Shown here piece by piece: positions 26,538 through 53,284 of a stretch of 64,000 bases of DNA. The DNA is taken from NCBI GenBank assembly GCA_041391785.1, contig JAWKNI010000011.1:1330-65329 (forward strand), in the 5' to 3' direction. Under the pieces are notes generated by a model. It was given only the letters and a program-made list of their open reading frames with translations. It made no database searches and was not told the origin of the DNA. Numbering within the stretch: position 1 is the first letter of the stretch; the number at the start of each line of letters is the position of its first letter. The DNA is from Flavobacteriales bacterium (GTDB taxonomy: Bacteria; Bacteroidota; Bacteroidia; Flavobacteriales_F; PHOS-HE28). The position numbers and the translations under genes are program-made.

Positions 26538-28412
26538 TCAGGTTCGATCGAACTGCAACCGGCTTAAGGAGTGGTACAACCCGTCCACATCCGCGATCAA
26601 CTCATCGTGCGGGCCGCTTTGCACCACGGTCCCTTTGTCCAGCACCAGGATCTTGTCGGCATTGCGCACCGTGCTCAAGCGGTGGGCGATCACGATGCTC
26701 GTGCGGCCTTTCATCAGGGCATCCAATGCGTCCTGCACCAGTTTTTCGCTTGCCGTGTCCAGGGAACTCGTCGCTTCATCGAGGATCAGGATGGCCGGGT
26801 CCTTCAACACCGCGCGGGCGATGGCGATGCGTTGGCGTTGACCACCGCTCAACTGGACCCCGCGCTCACCGACCACTGTTCCATAGCCTTCCGGAAAGCG
26901 CTCGATGAATTCATGCGCGTTGGCCTTGCGCGCCGCTTCCTCCACCTCGGCATCCGATGCGCCGGGCCTTCCGTAGGCGATGTTCTCGCGGATGCTTCCA
27001 CCAAAGAGAAGCACCTCTTGCGGCACGATGCCCATACGTTCCCGCAACGCGGTAAGGTCGAATTCCCGGGCATCCTTTCCATCGATGGTGATGCTGCCCG
27101 ACACCGGGTCATAGAATCGCAGGATCAGTGACGCGATGGTGCTCTTCCCAGCGCCGCTCGGGCCGACCAGCGCCACGCGTTCGCCGGCCTTCACCGTGAG
27201 GTCCACATTCCGAAGCACAGGCACATCCGGCCGTGTGGTGTAGTGGAACGAGACATCCTCGAAGGCCAGGTCGCCGGTGATCGGGAGGCGTTGGGCATGT
27301 TCTTCGAGGGTGATGTCCTCCGGTGTCTCCTCCTGCAGGTCCATCAATCGTTCGGTGGCGCCGATGGCTTTCAACAGGGTGGTGATCAACTCCGGAACGC
27401 TGCCGATGGAAGCGCCGATCATGATGGACAGGCCGATGAACGAGGTGATGTCGCCCACGTCCAGTTTCCCTTCAGCACGCAAATGGACCGCGCGCCACAC
27501 GATGAAGACCACCACACCGAACATGGCGAAGATGATGAACGAGATGAACACGCCGCGCCAGCGCACCCCTTTCAATGCCAGGTGCAGTGCTTGTGCCACG
27601 CTGTTCCCATAGCGCTTCACCTCGTACCCTTCATTCGAGAACGATTTCACGTTCTGGATGCCCTGGAGGGTCTCCTCCACGATCACGCTGGTGTCCGCGA
27701 TCTTGTCCTGCACCTGCTTGCTGAGCTTCTGGATGAAGCGACCGAAGAACACCGCGATCAGTGCCACCACGGGCAGCGTGGCCAGCATGGTCAAGGTCAG
27801 TTGCACGCTCACGTAGGTGAGCAGCGTGATGCCGATGCCGATCGTCACGAACTGCCTTAGGAATTCCGCGAGCACGGTGGTCATGCCTTCCTGAAGCAGC
27901 GAGACGTCCGCGGTGATCCGGCTGTTCAGTTCACCTACCCGGCGTTGCGCAAAGAACAGCATCGGCATGCGGATCAGATGCGCGTACGTGTCCTTTCGGA
28001 TGTTCGCCAGGGCATGTTCCGAGACGTAGCCGAAGGTCCAGATGCGCAGGTACCCGAAGAAGGCCTGCAGCGCGAATATGATCAGCAGGAGCTTGGCGAT
28101 GGAATCGATGTTGCCAAGGTCGGTCAGCGGTGCTTCCCAGAACCCCGTGCGCGCCTCGGCATTCACGAGGTCCCCCAGCAATAACGGGAATGTGAGGCTC
28201 AGCAAGCTGGTGATCAGCAGGCAGCACAGACCGAATGCGAAGGTCCAGCGGTGCGGCTTGAGGTAGCGGAAGATGCGGACCGCTTTGCGCAGGGTGGCCT
28301 TGTTCAGCTTCGGTCGCGGCGCATCACCGAAGGCTTTGGAAGCAGGGCGGGATGCCATGGGGCGCAAAGATCGGGAACGCTTCTGTACCCGACTGATCCC
28401 ACGCAACCCCAT
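26538..28412 (-). CDS. ABC exporter of the MsbA type with fused permease and ATPase. The alternative start at 28358 is also an ATG.
   Basis: Walker A 'GPSGAGKST', signature 'LSGGQRQRIAIARA', Walker B 'ILILDEAT', and 6 TM at the N-terminus. Confidence 0.9.
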   Translation of the reverse strand: MGLRGISRVQKRSRSLRPMASRPASKAFGDAPRPKLNKATLRKAVRIFRYLKPHRWTFAFGLCCLLITSLLSLTFPLLLGDLVNAEARTGFWEAPLTDLGNIDSIAKLLLIIFALQAFFGYLRIWTFGYVSEHALANIRKDTYAHLIRMPMLFFAQRRVGELNSRITADVSLLQEGMTTVLAEFLRQFVTIGIGITLLTYVSVQLTLTMLATLPVVALIAVFFGRFIQKLSKQVQDKIADTSVIVEETLQGIQNVKSFSNEGYEVKRYGNSVAQALHLALKGVRWRGVFISFIIFAMFGVVVFIVWRAVHLRAEGKLDVGDITSFIGLSIMIGASIGSVPELITTLLKAIGATERLMDLQEETPEDITLEEHAQRLPITGDLAFEDVSFHYTTRPDVPVLRNVDLTVKAGERVALVGPSGAGKSTIASLILRFYDPVSGSITIDGKDAREFDLTALRERMGIVPQEVLLFGGSIRENIAYGRPGASDAEVEEAARKANAHEFIERFPEGYGTVVGERGVQLSGGQRQRIAIARAVLKDPAILILDEATSSLDTASEKLVQDALDALMKGRTSIVIAHRLSTVRNADKILVLDKGTVVQSGPHDELIADVDGLYHSLSRLQFDRT

Positions 28413-28828
28413 AGTGTTTACCCGGGGGCTCTACTTCCAGACCTTTGCCCAACAGGCGATGTCGAGATACGGGGTACAGGGCCATCGGATCCAGTTGCCC
28501 TGCGTATCAAGGCTGAACGCGCGCGGAACGCCGGCATGACAAATGGCACGGGAAGTCGGACTTGAGGCCCTCAAAACCCGGAACTATCTCTGTCATATTT
28601 CCAATCATTCAGGAATGAACGGCAATCGAAAGCGGTCTATTCCTATTCATCAACGCCTTTTGTGCATGAAGTAGCAGCGGATCCGCCGTCGGCGGATCTC
28701 TCTGGTGCGGACGCCTACTGGAAAAGAACTCACGCGAGCAACAGGGTAAAGACCCGATTGCCCTGATCCGGGAATCGTATCCTATAAATATTTCAGACTT
28801 ACGCGTCCGACTCGGACACCACTTTCCC

Positions 28829-29156
28829 ATGATTATGTTTTCCACCACGGACCCGACTCGCAAGCGGCTTGCTTGGTTCGCATTGACACTCCTGCTCCTT
28901 TGGATCGCATGCAGTATTGTCCATGGGCCGATATCACACGGGGAAACCCGTATGTGTTATTGCCTTGATCTGGGGTCTTGGTTATTGCTTCATCCGCTAC
29001 AGGAAGGGTGCGAGACCGGCTTTTACCGAGCGTTGGGGATGGATATTGGGTGGGATCCTCACGGTAGTCCTGCTTGTGATGTTGCTGCATCGCGAGGTGA
29101 AATACCAAGAGCGCAAGGTGGTCCTAGGTCGAGCTGTGGAGGCCGTGGATCCGTAG
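28829..29156 (+). pseudogene. Small membrane protein, frameshifted once.
   Basis: ORFs 28829 and 28917 are hydrophobic fragments in adjacent frames. Confidence 0.2.
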
Positions 29157-29428
29157 AACAAGGTGAGGGAGGGAATGTGCAGGACAAGAATGCCACTGCT
29201 CCCTGCTAACTCCTCTCTCGTGCACGCCAACGTGGGATCTTTCCGCTTGCTGTGGGCATGGCTGCACAAGGCCGGATGCCATGGCACATCCCTCAGGGCC
29301 CTCGGGCATGGTCCAGCAGGTCCCAACCGCCTGAGCGGAACCAAGCGGAACGTACTTTGGATCGTTCCGAAGGTCGCATTGGAAACATCCGGTGCATGAA
29401 GGTCAAGGCGGGATACAGGTTGCCCGTT

Positions 29429-29863
29429 TCAAGCAAGGACCCGATTGTCGGGCTTGTACAGGGTGAATAGTAGCTTGGCCGATACAGGACGCTTGATTAT
29501 CCATTGTGCAACAGGGTTGTCCGCAGGTGGATAACCCGATGTGATCCTGTCCATGTGATATACCTTGACAAGGCTGTTCCTACCGGAAAGTCGCCACCTG
29601 TTCATGGTATTGCGCTTGAGCAGCCATTCGCCCTTGTGCCAGGGGTAGTCGAGGCGTTCTATTGGGACCTTAAGGTCATACTCGCCCTTGCATTCAAGTT
29701 CGTTCGTCGAGAGGCTGGTATCGCCTGCAAGGATGAAGTCATCCAGGCCAGGAAGCTCGGTCGCCTGTAGGATCCATACGCCTCCGTTGCAGGACCGCAT
29801 GCCAAGGTGGCTGTTCAATTCATCCACGCGCTTTCTCTGGATCGCACCCAGAAGGGTACACAT
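29429..29863 (-). CDS. Hypothetical protein, possibly orphan immunity or cargo. It lies in a lower-GC stretch downstream of the DUF4123 gene.
   Basis: ORF only. Confidence 0.3.
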   Translation of the reverse strand: MCTLLGAIQRKRVDELNSHLGMRSCNGGVWILQATELPGLDDFILAGDTSLSTNELECKGEYDLKVPIERLDYPWHKGEWLLKRNTMNRWRLSGRNSLVKVYHMDRITSGYPPADNPVAQWIIKRPVSAKLLFTLYKPDNRVLA

Positions 29864-29905
29864 CCTTTGATGGTCAATGATCGCATGGTAAGTGGTGGTG
29901 TTGGA

Positions 29906-30505
29906 CTAGTACCCGAAATCCCAGTTCTTCTTCCGCGCCACCTGCCCTTCGTCACTACCGCGCTCCTCGATCACCCCTGGAGGTCCTCCTGAGAGATAGC
30001 TCACAAGCTTCTTGCCCGTCTCCACTACTTCCAAGGTGCCTTGATCCGTGAGGGTGAACTCCACCACCAGTCCATTCACATCCTCCGCGAGGAACATCGC
30101 GATGGGGCCGAAGAAGGCGGCCAACTGTTCCGGCTCGCAAGTGGGCAGGAACACCCGCAGCACCCTTGGGTCGTAGTATCGGAAGTACATCTCGCGCCCG
30201 TCCTCGCCCTCCACGATCAGGAAACTGCGCAGGTGCTTGTAGAGTTTCACCGGATCCGCATCGCTTTGGAACACCACACCCCAGCTTTGGCCAGCACCGT
30301 TCTCCACAAGCCACTGGGCGAACGGGCTGTGCGGTGCAAGGCTGAAGAGCCATGGTGCCACAGCGGAAAGAAAGCGCTCACTATCCCCTTCGTACAAGCA
30401 GGTATGCTCCGGGTTCAACTCCCGAGCGCGGTGGATGTCGCCATGCATACGTGCGGCATCGAGCAGGAGGAAGGAGTTCGTAGCCAATGTCCGGTGAGGA
30501 TGCAT
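29906..30505 (-). CDS. DUF4123-family T6SS adaptor/chaperone (Tap/Tec type).
   Basis: 'LLLDAARMHGDIHRARELNPEHTCLYEG...APWLF', the paralog at 33104-33730 with a shared C-terminal 'WDFGY', and the position 16 bp downstream of the PAAR gene. Confidence 0.7.
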   Translation of the reverse strand: MHPHRTLATNSFLLLDAARMHGDIHRARELNPEHTCLYEGDSERFLSAVAPWLFSLAPHSPFAQWLVENGAGQSWGVVFQSDADPVKLYKHLRSFLIVEGEDGREMYFRYYDPRVLRVFLPTCEPEQLAAFFGPIAMFLAEDVNGLVVEFTLTDQGTLEVVETGKKLVSYLSGGPPGVIEERGSDEGQVARKKNWDFGY

Positions 30506-30521
30506 TAATGCCGTGGCAGGT

Positions 30522-31010
30522 TCAGGTCGGCAGTGAAGCCACCGCTACGAACGTCGCTCCATCGGTAGCGGCCTGTTGCATGGCAAGGGTCACTTGGGCG
30601 GTTTCCTTGGCCTTCGCCTCGACCGCCCCGTCGCCTCCAGCGGCTTGGTCCACTTGCTTCTGGAACTCTTGCATGATCGGCGCCATCACCACGGGCGTCA
30701 CCGGTCCCCCCGGGCTCATCTCACCGATCAACACGGTCGGGCACCCCACCACGATGGTTCCACCGTGCGCGCACATATCACCCATGCGTGCCGCCGGCTT
30801 GCCACCGATCAGCACACCCGTGGAACCCAGCACAATGGTATCTGGTGGTCCTACACAGGTACACATATCCCCCATCACGGCAGCGGGCATGCCGCCGATC
30901 AGCACGGTGGGCACGCCGGGGCCGGTCACCGGGCCGCCCACATGGGGCTTGGGACCATCGAACATGGGGCACACATGCATGTCGCCGAGACGGGCTGCGG
31001 GTTTGGACAT
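30522..31010 (-). CDS. PAAR-domain spike-tip protein with a roughly 50-aa Ala/Gln-rich C-terminal tail.
   Basis: 'MSKPAARLGDMHVCPM', repeated 'GxPxxxxGDMCxxGG' PAAR motifs. Confidence 0.85.
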   Translation of the reverse strand: MSKPAARLGDMHVCPMFDGPKPHVGGPVTGPGVPTVLIGGMPAAVMGDMCTCVGPPDTIVLGSTGVLIGGKPAARMGDMCAHGGTIVVGCPTVLIGEMSPGGPVTPVVMAPIMQEFQKQVDQAAGGDGAVEAKAKETAQVTLAMQQAATDGATFVAVASLPT

Positions 31011-31082
31011 GGTAGCTCGGTTTGGTATGGGCTAATGTAATATGTGCCAGGCATGCTCTATGCGAGCCTCATACTTGGTCCT

Positions 31083-31631
31083 TCAGGATCCCCCGTACTC
31101 CTTGGTCAGGAAGAAACCCTCCACGTCGGCCAGCTTCTTTTCTATGTGGAAGCAGTTGTTCTGGGGTTCGTCGTGATAGTCGCTCACGGGATACGGTCTG
31201 TAGCTCTTCAGGGTCTTCCTGAATTCATTCTTGTCGCTGATGGAGGCGAACGGGATGTCGAGGACGTTCACGAACGATGTGTCCACACAATGTTTGGTGA
31301 CATTACTGGGCCCGAGCTCTTTGATCTTCGCGTACATGGCATCGATCACCCCGGCCTTGTCCTTTCCCACTTTCACTGACTTCTCATACTCGGCGATGAC
31401 CATGTCACTGTGCTGACCATACACCTTGTACTGCTTCGCTGTTCCGGTCCTGTTACAATTGTTGTACATGACTCGCGCCTGATCGTAAGGGCTGCTGGCC
31501 ATTCTGGAAACTTCGATGCGCCCGTTGCCGGAAGCAGCGCCGAGGATCTTGAGCAGCTCAATGGCTTGGGCGGTCACGCCCTCATGGTTCACGCCATCAC
31601 GGGAAAGTATGGAGACCTCATCGGTGCGCAT
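31083..31631 (-). CDS. Hypothetical protein directly upstream of the PAAR gene. It is a candidate effector or immunity protein. It has lower GC, and its start could be as far upstream as 31736.
   Basis: ORF with a compositional shift; no motif recognised. Confidence 0.4.
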   Translation of the reverse strand: MRTDEVSILSRDGVNHEGVTAQAIELLKILGAASGNGRIEVSRMASSPYDQARVMYNNCNRTGTAKQYKVYGQHSDMVIAEYEKSVKVGKDKAGVIDAMYAKIKELGPSNVTKHCVDTSFVNVLDIPFASISDKNEFRKTLKSYRPYPVSDYHDEPQNNCFHIEKKLADVEGFFLTKEYGGS

Positions 31632-31741
31632 GAACGAAGTTGGTTTGATGAGTATGCCCGACCGAAAGATTAATGTAATCGGAACACGTATGCGCCGCTT
31701 TGCTATGTTCGTAGGCCATCCATCTCCCCTACGCATACGCC

Positions 31742-33094
31742 ATGGTGTTCCGTACTGTTTCTTCAGTCAGCTTACTGGCTATGGCGGTGATGGCCAAAGG
31801 TCAGTTCGGGATGGGGCTTGCCGGGGGATCATGGGAAGGGATCTGGGGGCTGCATCACCAACCAGCGAGCATCCTGTTGAACCAGGACAGGATGGAGGTG
31901 AATGTGTTCCGTGCGGGTATCGACGCATACGCGAATTTCCTTGAGATCGACCCCAACCGCTTCGGGATCTTGAATTTCAATGATGGGTTGGTCCTGGACA
32001 AGGAAGGACCGCAGGTGCACGGTACCGACCGCCTGGGTGAGAATAGCTTGTTCGATTTGCGCACATTGGGTCCGTCTCTGGCCAGGCGTGTGGGCAAGCA
32101 TGGGGCATGGGCGTTCACCACCGCTGGCCGGGTGATTTATACTGGGCTCGACCCGCGTGCCACCACTGGACGATTCGGCTTGGATACTCTGCTTCTTCGA
32201 GCGGGAGAAGAGCGGTTGATGGAAGCGGTGGACATGCGAGCAAACACGGCTACCTGGGCTGAAGCGGGTCTCACGTATGGCAGGACCTTCAATGATGCAG
32301 GTAAGGTGCGCATCCATGCAGCAGCTACGGGGAAGTTCATCGTGGGTGGGAGAGCCGGGTACCTTGTGGTATCCCCTCCTGTGGTCGAGGGTATGACCGA
32401 TTCCACCACGGCCATTGCGCAAGTGGACATTGACCATGCGTTGGCGTTACCCCACGACTGGAACACAGCGGGTCGCGGTTGGAACGCGGACCTGGGTGCG
32501 ATCATCGAAGTCATGAGGCGGGACTGGGCGCCGGATATGCGGCCATACCGGTTGCGTTTCGGTGTGGCATTCACCGACCTTGGATCGGTCAACTATAAGG
32601 AAGGGGCCGGCGTGTATCGGATCAGGAACGGCACCACCACCTCAGATCAACTGGCCGCATTGCAGGTGGATAATGTCGCTGGGTTGGATACTGCACTGAG
32701 CAGCTTGCTCCTCGGTGATCCGGTCCGGTCGCGCGTCGGAACCGCCTTCAAGTTGGGGTTGCCGGCCGCCTTGCACCTCAGCTTGGAGTTCTGCCCTGCT
32801 CAGCACTGGGCCGTTCGGGCCGAAGGCGTGTTGAATATGCGGCATCCGCCTGAGGCTCTGTCCACACGCGAACAGATCGCCATCACCCCGCGATTCGAGA
32901 CCCGTATGCTCATGGTCGCTGTTCCGTTCACCATGGACCGGTACGGTACGCGCGGGCTGGGGCTATGCCTTCGGTTGGGTGGCGCAATGCTCGGTAGCGA
33001 TCGCCTTGGTGGGCTCATCGGCATGGAGAACGGCGTAGGGGCCGACTTCTACTGCGGCATCAAGCTCCGGTTCAAAGAAAAGGAGCCCGAATAA
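31742..33094 (+). CDS. Secreted or outer-membrane-like protein of 450 aa with a signal peptide ('MVFRTVSSVSLLAMAVMAKGQ'). Its C-terminus ('YCGIKLRF') resembles that of the 37921-39318 protein.
   Basis: The ORF has non-spurious composition. The shared 'GIKL' C-terminal motif links it to the 37921 gene. Confidence 0.45.
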   Translation: MVFRTVSSVSLLAMAVMAKGQFGMGLAGGSWEGIWGLHHQPASILLNQDRMEVNVFRAGIDAYANFLEIDPNRFGILNFNDGLVLDKEGPQVHGTDRLGENSLFDLRTLGPSLARRVGKHGAWAFTTAGRVIYTGLDPRATTGRFGLDTLLLRAGEERLMEAVDMRANTATWAEAGLTYGRTFNDAGKVRIHAAATGKFIVGGRAGYLVVSPPVVEGMTDSTTAIAQVDIDHALALPHDWNTAGRGWNADLGAIIEVMRRDWAPDMRPYRLRFGVAFTDLGSVNYKEGAGVYRIRNGTTTSDQLAALQVDNVAGLDTALSSLLLGDPVRSRVGTAFKLGLPAALHLSLEFCPAQHWAVRAEGVLNMRHPPEALSTREQIAITPRFETRMLMVAVPFTMDRYGTRGLGLCLRLGGAMLGSDRLGGLIGMENGVGADFYCGIKLRFKEKEPE

Positions 33095-33103
33095 AGCAGC
33101 GCC

Positions 33104-33730
33104 TCAGTAGCCGAAATCCCAGCCCTTGGAGGGTGGCCGTTGCTCCCGTATGGGCTCCGGTTCCTGCACGATCGCGGTTTGGGTGGCCTCCTCTGGGATT
33201 TGTTCAGCGCGCAGCTTGGGCACACCGGTGGTGCCGGTAGCGAGTCCTTCGAGGCTGCCCTCCAGTTCGGCATACAGCAACTCGTTGTCCGATAGGGCGT
33301 ACTCCACCAACAGCCCATTCTCGTCCTCGGCCACGAATGCCGTGATCGGGCCGAAGAACTCCCGGAGCTGGTCCTTGTCGCAGGTGGGCAGGAACACGCG
33401 CAGGACACGGGGATCATAGTAGCGGAAGTAAAGCTCCTTGCCCTCCTCGGTCTGGATGATAAGGAAACGCCGCAGGTGTTTATACAGTCGCACGGGTTCC
33501 ACTTCGCTCCTGAACAGGATACCCCAACTGTTCCCTTTGCCCTGCCGCACGGCCCACCGGGCGAAATCGCTCCCGGGCTCGAAGGCGAACAACCAGGGTG
33601 CCACAGCGGCCAGGAATTTCTCACTGTCGCCCTCGTACAAGCACGTGTGGTCCGGGTTCAGGTCGCGGGCCTCCTGGATGGCGCCGTTCATGCGCGCCGC
33701 ATCGAGCAGGATGTAGTTGGCCTTCTTCAT
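33104..33730 (-). CDS. Second DUF4123-family T6SS adaptor paralog.
   Basis: 'ILLDAARMNGAIQEARDLNPDHTCLYEGDSEKFLAAVAPWLF'. Confidence 0.7.
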   Translation of the reverse strand: MKKANYILLDAARMNGAIQEARDLNPDHTCLYEGDSEKFLAAVAPWLFAFEPGSDFARWAVRQGKGNSWGILFRSEVEPVRLYKHLRRFLIIQTEEGKELYFRYYDPRVLRVFLPTCDKDQLREFFGPITAFVAEDENGLLVEYALSDNELLYAELEGSLEGLATGTTGVPKLRAEQIPEEATQTAIVQEPEPIREQRPPSKGWDFGY

Positions 33731-34143
33731 TTGCTTGCATCCGATATGTCCCTGGGCGCAGCAACGCCCATGCCACCCAACACCCTTGCCCGGTTCGAGG
33801 AAAGATCATGGATCGCGATCGGGGCGGTGCTTCCCCGAAGTGCCAGAAGGTGGGCCGGCCAGTGTGGCAATTCGGCCTTGTTGATGGTCGTGAGCGGCGG
33901 TAGCCCTGTCGTAGGTTCAATGGCCTCCGCGCCGTCGCTTGCTGCCGTCCGGAGTTGTGAGATAAAGGTGTGGTGCGGGCCCTCAGACATCACATGCGCA
34001 TTCGTTGAACGAAAGAACAGGCATTTTCACAAAGGTGTCGCGCAAGGCCCAGAGGTGAACTCTCGGCTTGGGGTTTTATCCTCACATATGGATGTTAGTT
34101 CGTCCGAATCGCTATTTTCGACCACACCTACACGACCGCATGC

Positions 34144-34701
34144 ATGAAGCCGATCAATGCTGCCCAGCGCCGGGGCCAGTTCCTTCGTTTTGTCCTACTC
34201 TTTCTGCTGGCGATGACACCGGTGGTGGTGTTCATGTACCTCCTTGGACGGAACGACAGCAAGGCATATGAAGCGCTCAAGAACGAGCGGAACGAACTTC
34301 ATCAAAAGGCCAAAGTACATATGGGCCATGCTGAATTGGTCGGGAAGGTTGCTCGAGCGAGCCGCTTGTTCCAACAGAGCGTGTTTGAGAAGGAGCCGGA
34401 CTTTCTGGGGTTCACTACAAAAGTAGACGGCGTGTTTCTCAATGCGATCAGGGACTTGGAAGAGGCATCAGATTCTCTTAAGGAGAAGGGAGGAGGGGCG
34501 AGCAGTGATAAAGAGCTTGTTGCGATCGCACAGGATTATGCTGCGACATCCAAGAAACTTCTGGAAGTGTACGTGGGCGGATTCGCTGAGATCGGTAGAC
34601 TTCGAAAAGATTATGCACAATGTGATAAAAGCCTTACCGAAAAAACGGTCGAGGTGACAGCGCTTACCACTAGTTTAGAGAATTGTAAGCGTTCCAGGTA
34701 A
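34144..34701 (+). CDS. Single-pass membrane protein with an N-terminal TM and a coiled coil. Candidate Bacteroidota-specific T6SS membrane-complex subunit (TssO/TssP-like?).
   Basis: TM 'FLRFVLLFLLAMTPVVVFMYLL'. It is the first gene of a plus-strand cluster inside the T6SS locus. The assignment is inference only. Confidence 0.4.
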   Translation: MKPINAAQRRGQFLRFVLLFLLAMTPVVVFMYLLGRNDSKAYEALKNERNELHQKAKVHMGHAELVGKVARASRLFQQSVFEKEPDFLGFTTKVDGVFLNAIRDLEEASDSLKEKGGGASSDKELVAIAQDYAATSKKLLEVYVGGFAEIGRLRKDYAQCDKSLTEKTVEVTALTTSLENCKRSR

Positions 34702-34731: not shown

Positions 34732-35949
34732 ATGAAGGGACCTATCATTGCCTTTTTCGTGGTATTGGTCGTGCTTCTCACCGGTCTGCTCCTTTGGATG
34801 GACGACTCGATCATTGGAGCAATCCATGTGAAGGCTGGTAGTGATTCTGTTCCGAACAGTTCCTTGGTGATTGGGCAAGAGTATTATTTGCAGCCGGGGG
34901 ATGAGGTGGACGTGAGTGACTCCGAAGGTTTGCTTTGGCTTGTTCGGTCGGGCAACAATGATGAATTGGGCGATGTATTTGGACAAGAAATGTCCGTCCC
35001 GGTCTACAACTTTGGGGATACCGGCCGGTACTACATTGAATGCTCCCGCAACGCAAAGGTCATAGCGGTGGATTCCGTCTACGTGCGGCAGGGTGATCGG
35101 TTCGCGAGCCTGGGAGCCTGGTCTTCCTCGCCGGCCGATACGGCGGGTGCGTCCATTTATTTGACGAACAATTCGCAGAACGTCGCGGAGTGGAGATGGC
35201 GTGTGCATCGCCAAGGGACCCTTGTTGCCGAAGAAGGCGGTCAGAGCTGGAACTGGACCCCGATCGACACGGGGAGCCACATGGTGCGTTTGGACGTGCA
35301 GATGCGGTCGGGTGCCACCCATGCCGACTCCATGCTCGTGGCCATTGCGCCACCACCGCCCAAGTCGGCGGTGGCACCGAAGCCCAAGCCAACGCCAACA
35401 CCACCTGCACCCAGGCCCAAACCTGCACCCAAGCCCAAACCCACACCCAAGCCGAAGGTAGATCTCGCACCGCCACCCCCACTTGCTGGTGCATGCTTTG
35501 GAGCGAACCGGGCCCTATCCAGCACGAGCAAGGCCGATATGCCCGACCCGAAACGCGCCGATGTGCGCTGGGAGAAGGGAACAACGGAGTTCATCCTGGA
35601 TGTACATACCGATTGCAAGCTGAAGGACTTTCCACACTTCGCCAATTCCGAAGTTGCGGGCAACAAGGTGGCTGTCACCGTTGAGTGCATCAGCGAGGGC
35701 TGTACCGGAGAGAGCAGGTACACACGTTATTTCACCCCGGCGTTCGACAGCCAGAAGTGGGCCTCAAGGAGTGTGAACCTGCCCCTGCTCCTGGCAGGCA
35801 AGCGCTACCGTGTACGTGTGCAGCCCCAGGGGGACACCGACTATCTCGGCTACTTCGGCATCACATCGCAAGTGGTGAACACACCCTGCGCCACCATCAC
35901 CTTCCAACAGAACACCAGTTGCGTGTTCGATCTGGGTTTCCAGCACTAA
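34732..35949 (+). CDS. Single-pass membrane protein with a periplasmic domain and a Pro/Lys-rich linker ('PKPKPTPTPPAPRPKPAPKPKPTPKPK'). Candidate TssO/TssP-like subunit.
   Basis: TM 'IIAFFVVLVVLLTGLLLWM'; the linker is visible in the DNA as a 'cccaagcc' periodicity. Confidence 0.4.
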   Translation: MKGPIIAFFVVLVVLLTGLLLWMDDSIIGAIHVKAGSDSVPNSSLVIGQEYYLQPGDEVDVSDSEGLLWLVRSGNNDELGDVFGQEMSVPVYNFGDTGRYYIECSRNAKVIAVDSVYVRQGDRFASLGAWSSSPADTAGASIYLTNNSQNVAEWRWRVHRQGTLVAEEGGQSWNWTPIDTGSHMVRLDVQMRSGATHADSMLVAIAPPPPKSAVAPKPKPTPTPPAPRPKPAPKPKPTPKPKVDLAPPPPLAGACFGANRALSSTSKADMPDPKRADVRWEKGTTEFILDVHTDCKLKDFPHFANSEVAGNKVAVTVECISEGCTGESRYTRYFTPAFDSQKWASRSVNLPLLLAGKRYRVRVQPQGDTDYLGYFGITSQVVNTPCATITFQQNTSCVFDLGFQH

Positions 35950-35960
35950 CACCGTTGGCC

Positions 35961-37916
35961 ATGAACCGTCCATTGATCCTTTCCGCACTCGCGCCGACCG
36001 TTCAGTGTTACTCCGGCCTGCCCCGCATGGTGATGGGGTTGGTGCTGTGCATAACTGCGGCGGGTATACGGGGGCAGGAAATCACGATCACCGGCGTGGA
36101 GCCAGACCCGGTTTGCGCAGGGGGGGGCTTGGCGGTGGCGTTCGAGTTGAATGATCCGTTCAATGGGGGCAACGAGTTCACCGTTTGGCTCAGCGATGCA
36201 AGCGGTGACTTTGGCAGTGAACAGCAGATCGGGTCGCTTGCAGGTAATGTGTCCGAGACGATCGATGCGGTTGTTCCTCTCGGTGTAATGGCCGGATCAG
36301 GATTCCGGGTCAGGGTGAAAAGCACGGATCCGGAGGTCATCTCGGATGGGTCGGGTCCCTTTGAGGTCATTGCCTTATTAGTTTTCCCCGGTAGCTATGG
36401 TCCGTTCTGCAGCAATGGACCTGCGATCACCCTGGGTGGCACACCGTCGGGTGGTGTGTGGACGGGTATAGGTGTGAGCGGAAATGGTCCGTACACCTTC
36501 AACCCTTCGGTGGGCACCCAGACGCTCACCTATACCGCGACCAGCGGTAGCTGCAGCGACAGTGCGCAGACAACCATAACAGTCAACACCGCCCCTGCGC
36601 AACCGGATCCGGGGACATACGGCCCGCTTTGCAGCAATGATGACCCCATCGATCTTGCAGGTGATCCAGAAGGCGGAACCTGGACCGGTATAGGAGTCAC
36701 CGGCAACCAGTTCAACCCGAGTGTGGGGACACAAGCGCTCACCTATTCGATCACGAACGCGAGCAACTGTACCAGTAGCGCATCAACCACGGTGACGGTG
36801 ACCAATGCATCAGATGCGTCCATCACCTACAACGGATCTCCTTTCTGTGCATCGATCGGTTCAGCCGCGGTCACACAAAGTGGTTCGGATGGAGGGTCGT
36901 ATACCGCTTCGCCGTTTGGTCTTATTATTAATGTCAACACCGGTGAATTGGACCCCGAAGCCAGTACTCCAGGTACATACACGGTCACGTATGAGGTGCC
37001 TGCGAACGGAGTGTGTCCGATTTTCACTACCTCCACTACCGTCACCATCGTGTCCGTTCCGGAGCTTCCAATAGTTGCCGATCTGGGTGCCGATACGTTG
37101 TGCCACGGCCAGGTCACCTCTCTTTTTCTGGGGAACGACTATCCAGCGGGAACATCCTATTCCTGGTCCACCAGTGGTCCTGCCGAAATACTCAGCGGTG
37201 CCGACGAACCTATTTGTACGCTGGAATGGACGCATGCACCACCGTCCACCGGTCCAACTGGAAGTGGGGTTGCAGGGAGCTATACGGTCGCGGTGAATGT
37301 CGGTGGGTGTGCGAATCAGGTGTCAGGAACGATCACTGTGCTGGATTACTATGCCTCCTGTCCCAAAGGCATCGTTTTCTTCGAGCCGTACGGACTGGCC
37401 GTGATCGATCCGGTGGCGAACCATTTTCAGTGGGGCGCCATGGATGCCACAGGCGCGACTTTCACACCGATCGTGGGCGAGGTGGACCAAATCATGTTCC
37501 GGCCCGCGCTCGCATCCTTGGCAGGCGGTCTCCCGGTGGCTCCTCCTTATGTGGTCCGCAGTTCCATCTACGCCGATAAGTGTTTCTCGTACACGGCCCG
37601 GTGGGTGGATCAACCGGGGCTTGATCGGGAATGTTTGGTACCCACCTCAGGCATGACCACGGAGCCGGGCCATACGATCTACCCCAACCCGGGGGACGGC
37701 AAGTCGCTCACGGTGGAGGCTACGGGACCTCCGCTGGAGGAACCCATATGGTTCGAATTGTACGATATGCAAGGCCAGCAGGTGCATGCCGAACAAGTGT
37801 TGGTGCGGCCCGTCGCCCGGCTCGCTGCGGATCTTTCCGGTCTTGGACGGGGCATGTACGTGGTGCGCCTGCATAGCAGTGGCATGGAAGAGAACTTGAA
37901 ACTGATACTCGACTGA
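35961..37916 (+). CDS. T9SS-sorted surface protein with a signal peptide, at least 5 Ig-like repeats ('GP(L/F)CSN..PI.L.G.P.GG.WTG.GV.GN.FNPSVGTQ.LTY') and a type-A C-terminal domain ('TIYPNPGDGKSLTVEA...GMYVVRLHSSGMEENLKLILD').
   Basis: Repeats and C-terminal domain read directly. The start at ATG 35961 ('MNRPLILSALAP') was chosen over the upstream ORF extension. Confidence 0.7.
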   Translation: MNRPLILSALAPTVQCYSGLPRMVMGLVLCITAAGIRGQEITITGVEPDPVCAGGGLAVAFELNDPFNGGNEFTVWLSDASGDFGSEQQIGSLAGNVSETIDAVVPLGVMAGSGFRVRVKSTDPEVISDGSGPFEVIALLVFPGSYGPFCSNGPAITLGGTPSGGVWTGIGVSGNGPYTFNPSVGTQTLTYTATSGSCSDSAQTTITVNTAPAQPDPGTYGPLCSNDDPIDLAGDPEGGTWTGIGVTGNQFNPSVGTQALTYSITNASNCTSSASTTVTVTNASDASITYNGSPFCASIGSAAVTQSGSDGGSYTASPFGLIINVNTGELDPEASTPGTYTVTYEVPANGVCPIFTTSTTVTIVSVPELPIVADLGADTLCHGQVTSLFLGNDYPAGTSYSWSTSGPAEILSGADEPICTLEWTHAPPSTGPTGSGVAGSYTVAVNVGGCANQVSGTITVLDYYASCPKGIVFFEPYGLAVIDPVANHFQWGAMDATGATFTPIVGEVDQIMFRPALASLAGGLPVAPPYVVRSSIYADKCFSYTARWVDQPGLDRECLVPTSGMTTEPGHTIYPNPGDGKSLTVEATGPPLEEPIWFELYDMQGQQVHAEQVLVRPVARLAADLSGLGRGMYVVRLHSSGMEENLKLILD

Positions 37917-37920
37917 AGCC

Positions 37921-39318
37921 ATGCGCAACCATAGCCTACTCCATACGCTCGCGGCCGTGTTCGTACTGGGCATTACCCAGGCAGTGATGGCCAGCACGCC
38001 GTCGGCCACCCCGCTGGGAGCCGATTCGGTAAAGGACAAGGCCGTTGCCCTATTGGAACGTAACCTGGCATCGCTACGTGAGCATCGCACCAGTGGGGGG
38101 CAATACGCCGCCACCTTCGCTGAAGGCGCCCGGGTCTATTGCGATGTATGTGTACCACCGGCCCCCATGCCCTTTGAGCAGTATTATTTCCAAGTGACGG
38201 GCACCTTCCCGAACGGACTGGACCTCATGTATACGATCCATCATGGGCGGATCGAAATGGAACGGGTGGATGTGGAATACCATGTTACTATCCCATTCAC
38301 AAAGGATGTCCCCGCAATGGGTGCAGGAGGTCCTATTCCGGGCAAGCGCCAGCGATCCCATTTGAAAGCCCTCGTGGTCTATAATTTCACGAACGGCTAC
38401 CTCAGGATCAAGCAAATAGAACTGGACCAGGCACCGGGTTCCAACCTTTGGATGTTGGATGTTTCGCCCATGTTGGCGGTCGGCAAACCGGAGTTGGGTG
38501 CGCTGGCCGATCTGGCACCGAGTTGGAACGGGAACATGTTCCAAGTGGGGCTGATGCGCTACATGTACCCGGGCAAGGGCACCAACCGGGGCAACATGTG
38601 GCTCAAGGCCGGCTTGCGTGCCGGGCTGCGACAAGTACGGTTGCAGGCCGATGGTGTGGCGTACGAGACCACCGGCATCGCTCTACGGCCCACGAGCTCG
38701 GGCTTGCCAGCCGGTTCGGCGGTGCAGCATCACCTGGACCTTTCACAGCGCGTGTCCGACATCAACGAAAAGGTGACCAGTATGACCTTGGAAGTCCCTG
38801 TTGGATTGAGCAAGCGTTGGGCCATGTCGCGCAAGGCCGACCTGAGCCTTGAACTGGAACTCGGGATCGGCATGGAGCTCACCCGTAGCGTCAATGGCGA
38901 TTACACCATGGACCAGCTTGGAATGCATACGTTCACCTGGGCTGATGGGGTGGATCCGGTGACCAGCTCCGGAGCTGACCTGACCTATGACCAACGCCAT
39001 CAAGCCGTGACCGCTGCATCGGGTACGGAGTACAGCTTCTTTCAGGACGACCGCATGGTGCTGGACGATCTGGAGAGCAAAGCCAGACCCTACTTTTTCT
39101 GGGGCATCAACCCATCCGTATTCGTCCGGGGACTGAATGACCAGGTCAAGTACCAGTTCGGTCTGCGCGTGGCCATGGTGGGGACCAACCGCAATAGCGC
39201 CGTGGTGGACGGAACATACTTCGCCGACCAGGATGATCATGCGCGTCCGGCCCTGACCACCTTGGTGGATGGGCGCTTTCAGCCCTTTGTCGGTGTCTTG
39301 TTCGGGATCAAACTTTGA
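37921..39318 (+). CDS. Outer-membrane-like protein with a signal peptide; paralog of the 31742-33094 product.
   Basis: 'MRNHSLLHTLAAVFVLGITQAVMAS' and the C-terminus 'GVLFGIKL'. Confidence 0.5.
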   Translation: MRNHSLLHTLAAVFVLGITQAVMASTPSATPLGADSVKDKAVALLERNLASLREHRTSGGQYAATFAEGARVYCDVCVPPAPMPFEQYYFQVTGTFPNGLDLMYTIHHGRIEMERVDVEYHVTIPFTKDVPAMGAGGPIPGKRQRSHLKALVVYNFTNGYLRIKQIELDQAPGSNLWMLDVSPMLAVGKPELGALADLAPSWNGNMFQVGLMRYMYPGKGTNRGNMWLKAGLRAGLRQVRLQADGVAYETTGIALRPTSSGLPAGSAVQHHLDLSQRVSDINEKVTSMTLEVPVGLSKRWAMSRKADLSLELELGIGMELTRSVNGDYTMDQLGMHTFTWADGVDPVTSSGADLTYDQRHQAVTAASGTEYSFFQDDRMVLDDLESKARPYFFWGINPSVFVRGLNDQVKYQFGLRVAMVGTNRNSAVVDGTYFADQDDHARPALTTLVDGRFQPFVGVLFGIKL

Positions 39319-39323
39319 ACCTC

Positions 39324-41852
39324 ATGCGCATCCGTTTGCTTGTCGCGATCCCCGCGCTGCTGTGGCTGGTCGGCACGACCATGGCACAAAAGCCTGAAAA
39401 TGTGCTCTTCAAGCCGGTCAACTGGTTCCAGGTCAGGTATGATCATGAGAACGACCGGTTCTATAACGACCAGGGAGAACAGCTCAATGAGGAGTATTGG
39501 ACCTTCGCGTCGGGCAAGGGCGACAAGAGCCAGCGGTGGACCGTTTTCACCGATCGTGCGGGCGTGCTTCTGCGCAGTGAGCCACAAGCCGAAGCCGCAC
39601 CCACCTCATCCGCCGCGTTGCCTTTCGCGCAGGTGTTGTACGTGTTCAAGGAGGAGAAGGGATGGCTGTTGGTCGGGCGTGAATCGAACAGATCTGAGGG
39701 CTGGTGCGACAAGCGGCACCTCGTATTGTGGGACAAGCCGCTCGCCGAACATCGCACACGTATCGAGTTGAAGGCCTTTCTCGTCAACACGCTGACGGGC
39801 ATTGGAACAGAGCGCGGATCCGTACAGGGAGATCTCAAGCAGAAGTACGAGGTGTTCGATGGCCCCGGGTCGCGGGCCGAACGAAGGGAAACGAACTACC
39901 TCTACGATGTCTTCTACATCTACAAATACGATAAGGAGGGTGAGCGATGGCTTATTGGGCCGAATGAGATCTATAGCCAAAGTCCCTTGCTTGGCTGGGT
40001 GAATGCGCGCAAAGTGAAAGTGTGGGCGACCCGTCTGTGCCTGGAACCCAACTGGGAGGAGGCAGCGAAGGCCGAGCGCCGGGAAAAGAACGTCCGGGCG
40101 AGGCTGCTTCCATGGAACTCCACCCAGGTACAACAGCGCGCGTATCTACAGTCCGGTAATGGTGAGGGGCTGGTGGATGGGGATGAGAGCGAGCCGGCGT
40201 TCGATCGCTCGGGTCTGACCGGTGATCGGATGGACGCACGGCTGTTCCGTTATCCTGTGCTCGGCGCGCAAATGGAGGGCGATGCGAATTGCAGGTTCTT
40301 CACCGGGGTATCGGGTGTGATGAACGTCGGTGGCAGCGGAACGCTTGAGGGCTTCCGGAATGGGGACTATCTGAGAGTGCGCCGGTATTACGAGGCGTTG
40401 CGGGAGCAGAAGGATGTGCTCTGTGTCGTGTTCGTGCTTGAAGGAAGTGCTGATATGCGCACGCACATCGGCACCGTGAAGGAGACCATTGCCGCGCTGC
40501 AGCAGGAGTGCAAGAAGACAGGCATGACCGCCCGGTATGGGGTGGTCCAGTATTTCAATGAGTACGCTTCCGACAAAAAGGAGCCCGAATCGGCCTACAT
40601 GGAACAGCTCCCATTGACCAACGATGCCATGCAGGTGTTGGAATGGCTGGACAAGCGCATTTGCGAGGATAGGGGGGACAAAAGCGAAGCGCGCGCGGCC
40701 TACCTGGCATTGGCCCGTGGCATGGCCATGATGGAGAAGGGGCGGACCAATGTGCTCGTCCACCTCTGCAGCAGGCCCGACAATGGACGTGATGACCCAA
40801 CCTTCGGAGGTAAGTCCCAAACGGATCCCACGGACCTGGTGGCCGGCTTGGAAATGGGCAGGGCAACGCACTACCTGGGCTATGTCCTCAGCGGTGGTAC
40901 CACCGGGCCAACGGAACGGAAAGAAGCGTTCAACGGCATGGCCGAGGATGTGATGCCGGAATTGTCGACCGCGATCAGCAATCAGCTCAAGGGTATCGTC
41001 GAATTGGCCCGTGATGCGAAAGGGCGGGCATTGGCGCCCACGGTCGCCAGGACCAAAAAAGATGGTTCGGAAACGGCACGCATGGACCAATTCCATTTCA
41101 TGATGAAAGCCACCATGCTGGCCGATGGTACGAGCGATCTGCCACGTATGATCGTCGCGGATGTGGCCAATTCCGTGGAGAGCAGCAGGCAGGCCCTTGC
41201 AGCACTGGAAGGGATCGTGGACGATCGTTCGATGATCAAGGACCATGCACCCAGTTTCAGCTACTTCTATGGGCAGTTGACCGCGCAGGATGGGGTCGAT
41301 CGGGAAACACTGGACTTCCTTGCTCGGGAGAAGGTGCACGTGTTCACCAATGCGGCCACCTGGCATCGGGTCACGGGCATGCAACACCCGCTCTTCCGGT
41401 ATGTCCTGTTCTACGATGACCGCAGTTTGAACGCTGAGATCATTGCGCTCGATGAGTTGATCCGGGCCATGGAAACGATCAACATCGACGAATCCCGTGA
41501 ACAGTTGAGGACCCTTTGGCGGAAACGTGCGCAGGATGTCATCGGGTCCAAATACAGTGATAAGGTTCCTTTGGATGAGGTAAGGGCCAAGATGATGGGT
41601 GTTCATGACCTGAACATGGTCAAGCCCTTTGAAGATGCTTCCTTGCTCAAGGGGCTCACGTTGAACGATCTGGATAACAAGACCAAGTTCAACCAGACCG
41701 TGTTGGATGGTTACAAGAAGGCCGCGATCGCGAACAAAGAGGCCTTGAACGCGATAAAGACCCAGGGCCAGTACTACCAGGCTCCGGGCCATGAAGAACG
41801 GAAGGATGAGCGCCGTTACTACTGGATTCCCATTGAGTATTTGTTCAATTGA
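39324..41852 (+). CDS. Large secreted protein (~842 aa) with a vWA-like domain carrying a degenerate MIDAS ('VLCVVFVLEGSADM', 'NVLVHLCSRPDNG'). It is the first member of a tandem paralog pair.
   Basis: Signal peptide 'MRIRLLVAIPALLWLVGTTMAQ'. It aligns by eye along its whole length with the next gene (shared 'IELKAFL', 'LLGWVN.(R/T)KVKVWATRLCLEPN', 'LFRYPVLGA', C-terminal 'YWIPIEYLFN'). Confidence 0.6.
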   Translation: MRIRLLVAIPALLWLVGTTMAQKPENVLFKPVNWFQVRYDHENDRFYNDQGEQLNEEYWTFASGKGDKSQRWTVFTDRAGVLLRSEPQAEAAPTSSAALPFAQVLYVFKEEKGWLLVGRESNRSEGWCDKRHLVLWDKPLAEHRTRIELKAFLVNTLTGIGTERGSVQGDLKQKYEVFDGPGSRAERRETNYLYDVFYIYKYDKEGERWLIGPNEIYSQSPLLGWVNARKVKVWATRLCLEPNWEEAAKAERREKNVRARLLPWNSTQVQQRAYLQSGNGEGLVDGDESEPAFDRSGLTGDRMDARLFRYPVLGAQMEGDANCRFFTGVSGVMNVGGSGTLEGFRNGDYLRVRRYYEALREQKDVLCVVFVLEGSADMRTHIGTVKETIAALQQECKKTGMTARYGVVQYFNEYASDKKEPESAYMEQLPLTNDAMQVLEWLDKRICEDRGDKSEARAAYLALARGMAMMEKGRTNVLVHLCSRPDNGRDDPTFGGKSQTDPTDLVAGLEMGRATHYLGYVLSGGTTGPTERKEAFNGMAEDVMPELSTAISNQLKGIVELARDAKGRALAPTVARTKKDGSETARMDQFHFMMKATMLADGTSDLPRMIVADVANSVESSRQALAALEGIVDDRSMIKDHAPSFSYFYGQLTAQDGVDRETLDFLAREKVHVFTNAATWHRVTGMQHPLFRYVLFYDDRSLNAEIIALDELIRAMETINIDESREQLRTLWRKRAQDVIGSKYSDKVPLDEVRAKMMGVHDLNMVKPFEDASLLKGLTLNDLDNKTKFNQTVLDGYKKAAIANKEALNAIKTQGQYYQAPGHEERKDERRYYWIPIEYLFN

Positions 41853-41863
41853 CCATCGTGTTC

Positions 41864-52370: not shown

Positions 52371-53284
52371 GACTGTTCGGTTGCCTGGTGAACGCGCTCG
52401 AAGAATACATCGCAGTCTCGTGTGATCTTGTTCTGTGCGATCGTCAACCTTGGGTCGAGGATGGCTTTTCCCCACGGCCATTTGCGCTGCTTACGGAGAA
52501 GATAATGCGGCTTGCGGAATACCCAACCTATGCTTCCATCGTCGTTCCGAAGGCTCATTATTGGGCTATTGGGGAACCTGTTCTCGTTGTAGTCCTTGAT
52601 GAACAAATAGGCCAGTTCGCCCAGCTCAGCATCCTCCGGTAGTTTGACGTTCACGGTGGTGAAGATGTCCTCTTGTTCTTTCCGCTTGAAGTGGAAGTTG
52701 GCGATCACGATCCGGTCCCTGTTCCAGGTGTGCTGCTGTTCCCTGTAGTTCTTTGGATAGTGCCAAAGCTCGTACCGCTTCGGCTCCAGCGCCATGGCGG
52801 CCCGGAAGGCCCAGACCAAAAGCGTGGGCAGTAACACAGCTATGGCGGTAGGGGCAACGATCCAGGTGAACGCACTGCTGCCCAAATCGAGGAGACCAGG
52901 AAGGAGCAGATGCGTGAGGGCGATGCCGACCCCCACCATCAAGGCACCCAATGCGGCCACGCCCAGTTCACTCCATACATGCCTTTCTTCCTCTGGAAGG
53001 CGGCTGGCCTTGAGGGCGAGGTGGATGCCAATTCCAAGGGATCCCAGCGCCGAGATGATCAGGACAGCCCGTGGTATGTGAATGGCCGTGGGCATGAAGG
53101 GGTCAAGCAGGGCCATGCATCCCATGAGCGCCCCCAACAGGAACAGGACCAGGAAGAACAGGAACGGTTTCCCACCCAAAGCTTGCGCCTTGCCGGCGCC
53201 AGCCTTCGCTTTGGCCGCTCCGCTCATGCCTTTGGATGCACCGCTTTGTGCATCCCTGAACGCTGATCCCTGTACTTGGCTCAT
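52367..53284 (-). CDS. Polytopic inner-membrane protein with a cytoplasmic C-terminal domain. Candidate TssN, the type-iii replacement for the membrane complex.
   Basis: At least 4 TM ('FLFFLVLFLLGALMGCMALL', 'AVLIISALGSLGIGIHLAL', ...). It sits between tssG and tssK. The family assignment is inferred from context. Confidence 0.5.
   Translation of the reverse strand: MSQVQGSAFRDAQSGASKGMSGAAKAKAGAGKAQALGGKPFLFFLVLFLLGALMGCMALLDPFMPTAIHIPRAVLIISALGSLGIGIHLALKASRLPEEERHVWSELGVAALGALMVGVGIALTHLLLPGLLDLGSSAFTWIVAPTAIAVLLPTLLVWAFRAAMALEPKRYELWHYPKNYREQQHTWNRDRIVIANFHFKRKEQEDIFTTVNVKLPEDAELGELAYLFIKDYNENRFPNSPIMSLRNDDGSIGWVFRKPHYLLRKQRKWPWGKAILDPRLTIAQNKITRDCDVFFERVHQATEQS

Follow-up and report, generated by a model that had tools for sequence, protein, structure and literature searches.

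A Probable PAAR/DUF4123 Cargo-Loading Module of a Flavobacteriales Type VI Secretion System and Its Small Candidate Cell-Wall Effector

What do two DUF4123 adaptors and a PAAR spike-tip protein load when no large effector is encoded with them? The question is posed by positions 28359-33993 of a 64-kb stretch of DNA (the window, by which we mean the whole stretch analyzed) from a Flavobacteriales metagenome-assembled genome (MAG), in which profile matches reveal a complete type VI secretion system (T6SS) cluster of the Bacteroidota type (T6SSiii). A first-pass annotation of this DNA had noted one PAAR gene and two DUF4123 genes beside a gene-poor flank of lower G+C content (GC) with frameshifted fragments, and had proposed either that the effectors were lost or that one of two small genes encodes a novel effector. 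Profile and open reading frame (ORF) data bear out the PAAR gene, the DUF4123 pair, the dip in GC, and the gene content, but not the frameshifted fragments, which have no coding signal; the ORF list, the profiles, and tblastn with the cargo of related loci agree that the region holds no large effector. We find that the module is a variant of the known PAAR/DUF4123 cargo-loading scheme, placed in a T6SSiii and containing p182, whose family of toxins or enzymes is undescribed. Its features are listed by window coordinates, strand, and description.

28359..29428, no strand: non-coding spacer of ~1.07 kb; no coding signal, no similarity to relatives
28923-29156, plus: orf77, 77 aa, two predicted membrane helices, faint coding signal, convergent to the adaptor operon
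29429..29863, minus: orf144, an orphan ORF (ORFan) 42 bp after adaptor-a
29906..30505, minus: DUF4123-a adaptor (adaptor-a), 199 aa; PF13503, E 3e-33, residues 12-129
30506..30521, minus: empty cargo slot of 16 bp, PAAR to adaptor-a; filled in relatives
30522..31010, minus: PAAR spike-tip protein, 162 aa; PF05488, E 1e-25
31083..31631, minus: p182, stand-alone unnamed domain, 182 aa; proposed T6SS cargo effector
31090..31094, minus: run of five G (G5), 1-nt frameshift in p182 that truncates the conserved C-terminal tail
~31494-31505, minus: p182 residues 43 and 46, covarying pair in the family alignment
31742..33094, plus: DUF5723 gene, 450 aa, signal peptide, outer-membrane-like; PF18990, E 1e-16
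33104..33730, minus: DUF4123-b adaptor (adaptor-b), 208 aa; PF13503, E 3e-32, residues 6-123
33727..33993, minus: p88, likely ATG at 33990; overlaps the DUF4123-b start by 4 nt

Read along the minus strand, the order is p88, adaptor-b, the DUF5723 gene (plus strand), p182, PAAR, adaptor-a, orf144, about 1.07 kb free of genes, and an ABC-transporter gene whose start lies at 28358, not 28412. The module forms the left edge of the T6SSiii cluster and is divergent from a TssO-like gene. Comparisons were made with 40 related loci, designated by L numbers.

An Extended PAAR Protein and Two Short Adaptors

With a cut-off of 25.8 bits, the DUF4123 pair reached 114.9 and 111.6 bits, and the PAAR protein matched PF05488 over residues 19-87 with 90.1 bits (cut-off 27). 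VgrG, TssC, TssF, TssG, TssN, ClpV, and TssR-like proteins are encoded in the same window, as expected of a PAAR that belongs to a T6SS. Behind its PAAR domain (residues 1-97) come a Pro/Gly linker and a C-terminal motif, A-M-x-x-A-A-x-x-G-x-x-F-V (about residues 143-155), and no toxin domain. Thirteen PAARs encoded in DUF4123-linked loci were aligned, among them sequences from Segetibacter, a Hyphomicrobiales MAG, and a Chromatiales genome; every one has the Gly/Pro-rich linker and the motif in the form A[ML]xxA[AS]xxGxxF[VC], with A147 and G151 invariant, and most stop 5-15 aa past it. A cysteine pair stands just after the motif in many PAARs; there is none in the window, L014, or L030. In L004, PAAR is fused to a lipase (474 aa in all), and the linker of that protein is a homologue of the extension. 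A truncated PAAR-toxin derived from such a fusion was considered for the 162-aa protein and ruled out, since most of the 13 PAARs end after the same motif; the protein appears to be full-length for its clade.

The known biochemistry offers a role for such an extension. The N-lobe of DUF4123 proteins binds a short C-terminal helix-turn-helix of VgrG, and the N-lobe-only TecT binds the C-terminal extension of PAAR4, while co-TecT binds the effector (PMC11582642). We infer that the PAAR motif is a docking handle for the DUF4123 adaptors.

The two adaptors are paralogs of ~52% identity, with no third copy in the window. In both, an N-lobe conserved to about residue 150 is followed by a poorly conserved linker and an invariant WDFGY. 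At 199 and 208 aa they show no recognizable variable C-terminal lobe of the effector-binding kind and resemble the N-lobe-only TecT type. Their best NCBIfam match, Tla1 (the Tle1 chaperone), was sub-threshold and covered only positions 19-151 of 245. WDFGY ends all DUF4123 proteins of the Flavobacteriales clade, both window adaptors (29906-29923 and 33104-33121) and those of L004, L011-L017, L023, L025, L030, and L031. The relatives from Segetibacter, Hyphomicrobiales, and Chromatiales (L018, L019, L022) do not have it; it looks like a short C-terminal docking motif. The neighbors, too, are those of adaptors: a spike protein with a C-terminal extension, and cargo genes, namely the slot cargo of the relatives and, as candidate cargo, the p182 homologue beside adaptor-b in L004 and L014.

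Tandem DUF4123 pairs also occur on two metagenome contigs, L033 (1522-2648) and L034 (3-849), the latter pair directly upstream of PAAR; adaptor duplication is thus recurrent, and the gene orders differ.

Upstream of adaptor-b, p88 is kept in L010 (61% identity), L035, L031, and L004, always directly before an adaptor-b type gene. Across these four loci it shares the motifs E-x-P-x-W-P and R-x-x-V-L-x-G, with a ratio of nonsynonymous to synonymous substitution rates (dN/dS) of 0.2-0.4. It has no Pfam or PHROG match and is, by its position, a possible co-adaptor.

p182 and Its Family

The gene directly upstream of PAAR had been read as a 217-aa gene and suggested as a possible small novel effector. 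The product of this ORF (31083-31736) is 182 aa long, starting from the ATG at 31631: M-[RT]-T-[DE]-E-V is the N terminus of all the homologues, and gene calls made independently agree on this length. A word-seeded search returned only a few relatives of 191 aa with 57-65% identity, each directly upstream of PAAR in a Flavobacteriales T6SS locus. The exhaustive HMMER search uncovered a far larger family, with 768 cluster representatives (clusters at 50% identity) at E<=1e-3 and 324 at E<=1e-10. Residues 13-165 of p182 match the extreme C terminus of proteins 149 to 2543 aa long, and the domain ends no more than 15 aa from the C terminus in 139 of 153.

The modules in front of the domain fall into two kinds. 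Some are for trafficking (PAAR-like DUF4280, RHS repeats with DUF6443, WXG100), and others act on the cell wall (SLT, pesticin-type lysozyme, phage lysozymes, M23, GH19, PG_binding_1, SH3). A C-terminal domain behind differing N-terminal trafficking modules is the arrangement of polymorphic toxins. One DUF4280 carrier, P0080 (1174 aa, locus L043), lies in a TssD-TssD-VgrG-DUF3289 cluster; its C-terminal part reads as a lysozyme-like module and then the p182 domain, and a lipoprotein gene and a signal-peptide gene come next. These two genes would fit periplasmic immunity proteins, the picture expected of a wall-directed toxin. Neither has a homologue in the window. Architecture and context of the family thus speak for the suggestion that the gene upstream of PAAR encodes a small novel effector.

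Within the domain, conservation is complete or 99% and above at the catalytic-type residues Q51, M55, H114, D125, H162, and E164, none of which the window p182 has lost. Residues 43 and 46 covary: S43 with R46 occurs in 143 sequences and R43 with S/A46 in 6, never both Arg or neither, as though a single functional Arg could come from one position or the other. p182 falls into no family of Pfam, NCBIfam, or PHROG, and no PDB entry is related to it by sequence. An AlphaFold2 (AF2) model built from a 72-sequence alignment reached a mean predicted local distance difference test score (pLDDT) of 93.5, and Foldseek matched it to no solved fold in the PDB (best E 0.29). Pfam searches over the 72 members gave scattered weak matches, with DUF5715 in 3 (best E 0.11), and the homologue P0008 matched DUF5715 at E 0.0027. 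A viral library gave p182 a match at E 1.7e-8 to one protein without a name and a weaker match to a phage LT_GEWL protein. Its motifs SxxR..Q, SxH..D, and HxE, with the weak DUF5715 match of P0008, led us to consider a LAS/M15 zinc peptidase, an assignment unsupported by Pfam, PDB profiles, or Foldseek. p182 has no signal peptide, so it could reach peptidoglycan only by being secreted. p182 is probably a cell-wall-targeting enzyme.

Adaptor-b and p182 Are Neighbors in Related Loci

Adaptor-b is followed here by the convergent DUF5723 gene, 10 bp beyond its end, much as the first-pass annotation described an outer-membrane-like gene at this place. In L004 and L014/L028, an orthologue of adaptor-b (80-83% identity) is followed after 130-155 bp by a p182 homologue; when the adaptor-b copies of L010 and L031 are counted too, identities span 80-90%. 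The DUF5723 gene stands between the two in the window, L010, and L031, and it is absent in L004 and L014/L028; it is an insertion between adaptor-b and p182. Such an insertion explains why an unrelated convergent gene follows adaptor-b here, and the adjacency in the relatives restores the canonical order of adaptor, then effector. All p182-bearing loci that extend upstream have an adaptor-b type gene, and loci without p182 have a single DUF4123 gene. We propose that adaptor-b would be the tether for p182.

Several observations weigh against p182 as the loaded toxin. No immunity gene is recognizable beside p182 in the window, L004, L014, or any Flavobacteriales locus, where PAAR, rather than an immunity gene, comes after p182 every time; the neighbors with signal peptides, DUF5723 in the window and OmpA in L004, are not kept from one locus to another. 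Some members of the family, ~313 aa long, have membrane segments at the N terminus and occur outside T6SS contexts, so being a toxin is not the only use of the domain. The LAS/M15-like motifs have, as said, no backing from Pfam or Foldseek. In another explanation, one or both adaptors have their cargo encoded at other genomic sites as orphan effector-immunity pairs and p182 is an accessory peptidoglycan-cutting enzyme or a co-adaptor, not itself the toxin. The lack of an adjoining immunity gene in any locus would fit it, as would the resemblance of some non-T6SS members to housekeeping enzymes and the effector-like genes that lie convergently downstream, outside the slot, in L031 (Tle1-like) and L014 (M23). 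However, the window contains no homologue of the relatives' cargo, and p182, lacking a signal peptide, would meet peptidoglycan only after secretion; in Rhs, DUF4280, and WXG100 proteins its domain takes the place of the terminal toxin module, and its conserved catalytic-type residues are unlike those of a chaperone. We consider this explanation quite improbable.

A Variable Cargo Slot That Is Empty Here

Adaptor-a is 55-67% identical to the DUF4123 protein that closes the cassette in L004, L014, L023, and L030. In the Flavobacteriales relatives, the order is TssO (divergent), a PAAR with C-terminal extension, cargo and immunity genes, and a DUF4123 gene whose product ends in WDFGY. The cargo in the slot between PAAR and adaptor varies: a Tle1-like lipase with a lipoprotein in L016, a LysM-CHAP enzyme in L017, a metallopeptidase-like protein with a MORN lipoprotein in L015 (from Cryomorpha ignava), and a PAAR-fused lipase with an ankyrin protein in L004/L025. 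The expectation of an effector downstream of the adaptor, with which the first-pass annotation had approached the locus, does not hold in this clade: the adaptor closes the cassette, and no effector is to be expected after it.

In the window, the slot measures only the 16 bp listed above, and adaptor-a has no cognate cargo encoded beside it. Its cargo could lie outside the window, which counts against our reading of the module. L014/L028 and L030, two other lineages whose genes are intact, likewise have nothing in the slot, so the lack of a large effector is a recurrent configuration, not visible decay. This bears on a second alternative, that the module is a decaying remnant in which slot effector and immunity gene were deleted, p182 is degenerating, and the adaptors are functionless leftovers. 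An empty slot, set against the Tle1-like, CHAP, or lipase cargo of relatives, is what such a history would leave, and the flank after adaptor-a, non-coding with an ORFan, would suit it as well. Yet the same four-gene empty-slot arrangement occurs with intact genes in L014/L028 and L030, and in the window neither PAAR nor either DUF4123 gene is disrupted, with dN/dS values of 0.05-0.17 that indicate strong purifying selection on all three.

Related loci also encode proteins near the slot that are worth recording. In L031, a gene for a Tle1-like phospholipase, accompanied by a lipoprotein, lies convergently downstream, outside the slot. In L014, a 253-aa protein without apparent signal peptide (6079-6840, minus strand) is encoded convergently just after adaptor-a; it has a sub-threshold M23 peptidase match (28.0 bits, cut-off 28.7) and is possibly an effector encoded in inverted orientation. 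A family of 109- to 133-aa proteins accompanies cargo in L015 (7414-7806), L016 (4964-5350), and L017 (5273-5614), where its members are mutually similar (25-61% identity by BLASTP; N termini such as MIIKNKQFDAL and MIISNAQRAKL); further members, grouped by eye through their N termini only, occur in L031 (8346-8675, minus strand) and L019 (5265-5666). The family has no Pfam match, is absent from the window, and is a possible co-adaptor family.

The Stretch Downstream of Adaptor-a

The region 28413-29905 has a GC of 0.52-0.58, against ~0.60 in the flanks, and orf144 is its sole sizeable ORF. It had been described as holding frameshifted fragments and as looking decayed, with a lost effector as one possible reading. 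A sliding codon-usage score found no coding-like patch in any of six frames over 28440-29400, orf77 being a faint exception. By tblastx, 28413-29905 had no significant match to the related loci; by tblastx and tblastn, the spacer had no similarity to the remainder of the window. Translated searches of the region against the effector, immunity, and accessory genes of relatives gave no match, and tblastn with 28 such cargo, immunity, and accessory proteins found none anywhere in the window. Nor did the DNA match a plasmid collection. In the metagenome locus L023, only ~90 bp separate the orthologues of adaptor-a (67% identity) and of the ABC-transporter gene (79.5% identity); about 1.45 kb is thus absent there, which marks the stretch as an indel outside the module. 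A decayed effector in 28359-29428 was ruled out on these grounds: no coding signal, no similarity to cargo or plasmids, and absence in L023. The coding segments in shifting frames and the effector similarity that mark an effector pseudogene were not found, and 28359-29428 reads as plain non-coding DNA with no recognizable effector remnant.

L023 is of interest in its own right. Just upstream of its adaptor-a orthologue, where PAAR and the upstream genes are expected, it has an IS3-type transposase pair (217-1688), and it is a genuinely disrupted form of the module.

Two small ORFs remain in the stretch. The sole match of orf144 among 5.8 billion proteins is itself; it has no family, PDB, plasmid, or phage match, and its single-sequence AF2 model was unusable (pLDDT 29.6). 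Similarity to the genes downstream of free-standing p182 homologues, or to the relatives' small proteins, was sought and not found. Its codon usage is moderately coding-like, the best of six frames (GC at third codon positions 0.65), independent pipelines call it as a gene, and it is absent from L023 and L014. The convergent orf77 could be an orphan immunity-type gene or spurious.

A third alternative makes orf144 a lineage-specific cargo or co-adaptor of adaptor-a, in a position like that of co-TecT/TseT after PAAR4-TecT in Pseudomonas aeruginosa. Its proximity to adaptor-a on the same strand, its coding-like sequence and independent gene calls, and the order of PAAR, DUF4123, and downstream gene would fit the TecT paradigm (PMC11582642). 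Against this stand its ORFan status, with no homologue in the protein collection or in related loci, its absence from L023 and L014, the lack of a domain match or usable model, and the lack of any immunity-like partner except the weak convergent 77-aa ORF with its two predicted membrane helices. We judge a cargo or co-adaptor role for orf144 to be highly improbable.

State of p182 in the Window

The copy of p182 in the window is the most divergent of its clade, with 57-63% identity to all relatives, whereas the flanking PAAR and adaptor-b are 90-92% identical to those of L010; the corresponding dN/dS values against L010 are 0.32 for p182 and 0.05-0.06 for the flanking genes. Among positions with at least 94% conservation, window p182 departs from the family at four (S43R, R46S, G75S, S112T), and G75S and S112T fall on 99%-conserved positions. 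In addition, the frameshift at the G5 run swaps the conserved tail ...EGILKDLGMGLA for GGS: frame 0 reads ...KEYGGS*, and the +2 frame reads GILKDQV*, matching ...KEYEGILKDLGMGLA of the relative P0002. The 182-aa product is found on 7 contigs, so the frameshift is probably real and not an assembly error. Taken together, these features weigh against an intact effector, and window p182 could be impaired.

They also return us to the decaying-remnant alternative, which would draw on the raised dN/dS of p182, the changes at two 99%-conserved positions, and the loss of the tail. But p182 keeps all the invariant residues, its dN/dS of 0.15-0.32 is well under 1, and S43R/R46S is a recurrent compensated swap, not damage; inactivation through loss of Arg46 was ruled out, R43 with S/A46 being a covarying alternative found in five other members. 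We regard decay of the module as unlikely. With its invariant residues intact, window p182 is probably active as an enzyme. The tail lies outside the catalytic domain and is restricted to the T6SS-linked clade; it may be an adaptor-recognition element, and loading of p182 is possibly impaired through the altered tail.

Genomic Setting

The T6SSiii genes matched by profiles in the remainder of the window are listed in order.

34144-34701: TssO, weak match
39315-44437: two TssR-like genes
52367-53284: TssN
53307-54257: TssG
54254-56044: TssF
56501-58282: VgrG
58319-59677: TssC
60182-62653: ClpV

The TssR-like genes are tandem paralogs (39315-41852 and 41849-44437, plus strand) of 845 and 862 aa, the stop codon of the first overlapping the start codon of the second, and both gave only marginal scores against TssR models. 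Between the TssO-like and TssR-like genes lie three plus-strand genes, encoding a 405-aa Pro-rich protein (34732-35949), a 651-aa protein with a C-terminal sorting domain of the type IX secretion system (T9SS) (35961-37916), and a 465-aa protein (37921-39318). The trio is syntenic in L012, L013, and L036, and its first two genes are kept in L004 and L014/L028, loci that end earlier; a T9SS-sorted protein conserved within a T6SSiii cluster was unexpected. Rfam and tRNA scans found no RNA genes in the window, and a promoter and terminator scan found no excess over shuffled expectation.

Discussion

We consider it rather likely, although well short of settled, that 28359-33993 is a spike-loading and effector module of a Flavobacteriales T6SSiii. 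In the scheme that we propose, the 162-aa PAAR would cap the VgrG spike and present its C-terminal motif, A[ML]xxA[AS]xxGxxF[VC], as a docking handle. The two short N-lobe DUF4123 proteins, each with a flexible tail ending in WDFGY, would bind this handle and tether soluble cargo. Adaptor-b, possibly aided by p88, would tether p182, the only cargo encoded in the module, which would be injected into neighboring bacteria and attack the cell wall from the periplasm. Adaptor-a would serve the second, variable slot between PAAR and its own gene, a slot that is empty in this genome. The 1.45 kb after adaptor-a, made up of an ORFan and non-coding DNA, would be an indel outside the module and not a decayed effector.

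A bolder reading joins two further claims. The p182 domain would be an undescribed enzyme fold and a new family of cell-wall toxins, with a Q/H/D/H/E active site and an Arg at either of two positions. It would serve T6SSiii, on its own or attached to DUF4280, as well as Rhs proteins and WXG100 toxins of the type VII secretion system (T7SS) kind. PAAR-centered loading in Flavobacteriales, undescribed for T6SSiii, would have the PAAR handle recruit N-lobe-only DUF4123 proteins, with WDFGY as a second docking signal, for example for the baseplate or VgrG. Our literature search found no paper on DUF4123 in T6SSiii. That both claims hold together seems to us conceivable, with the balance leaning somewhat against it.

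The usual rule for finding cargo, to look for a large gene after the adaptor, fails in this Bacteroidota group: cargo genes precede the adaptor gene here, or the cargo is just a small domain that stands alone. The p182 family, large, nameless, and with neither a Pfam model nor a matching structure, makes a well-defined candidate for an enzyme of a new antibacterial kind. The PAAR C-terminal motif, the N-lobe-only DUF4123 proteins, and the WDFGY tail offer handles on effector loading in the little-studied T6SSiii. The locus also illustrates a limit of reading from nucleotide sequence alone: a lower-GC, ORF-poor flank beside secretion genes need not mean a decayed effector.

Comparison with Known Systems

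The closest parallel is the PAAR4-TecT-co-TecT-TseT/TsiT system of P. aeruginosa (PMC11582642). Both have an extended PAAR with a short, N-lobe-only DUF4123 gene right after it, and in both, here by our proposal, the effector is soluble, is not fused to the spike, and is held at the PAAR tip by a tether. Whereas that system belongs to a proteobacterial T6SSi, the module described here belongs to a Bacteroidota T6SSiii and has two DUF4123 paralogs flanking PAAR, each with a C-terminal WDFGY. It has no co-TecT homologue, p88 and orf144 being only positional candidates. The gene for its candidate effector comes after adaptor-b and before PAAR, no immunity gene adjoins it, and in place of an effector and immunity pair downstream of the adaptor there are an ORFan and non-coding DNA.

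The VgrG-Tap/Tec-effector modules of P. aeruginosa (Tap6-Ptx2, Tap14-RhsP2; PMC11582642) share the PF13503 domain and, through the Tle1-like cargo of the relatives, a cargo type; their adaptors tether unrelated cargo families (Tle-type lipases and others) to the spike, as we propose for those described here. Unlike these bilobed adaptors, which are encoded between vgrG and a large effector, the adaptors here are 199-208 aa long, have no recognizable C-lobe, and are linked to PAAR and not to VgrG, and in Flavobacteriales the adaptor gene stands last in the cassette, after the effector gene and not before it.

Some T6SS effectors degrade peptidoglycan, among them the Tae amidases, the Tge muramidases, and Tse4 of Acinetobacter baumannii. 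Like these, p182 is small and soluble and is predicted to act in the periplasm of prey, and members of its family are fused to SLT, lysozyme, and M23 modules in the manner of bifunctional wall-degrading effectors. Unlike the Tae- and Tge-type effectors, it is related neither by sequence nor by fold to the NlpC/P60, lysozyme, or LAS families, and no immunity gene was found with it. The family shares with the C-terminal toxin domains (CTs) of polymorphic toxins (Rhs-CT, LXG/WXG100-CT, DUF4280/PAAR-like-CT) the terminal position of the domain and, in L043, candidate immunity genes next to it. In contrast to those toxins, the window p182 is free-standing, at 182 aa, and would need an adaptor for loading.

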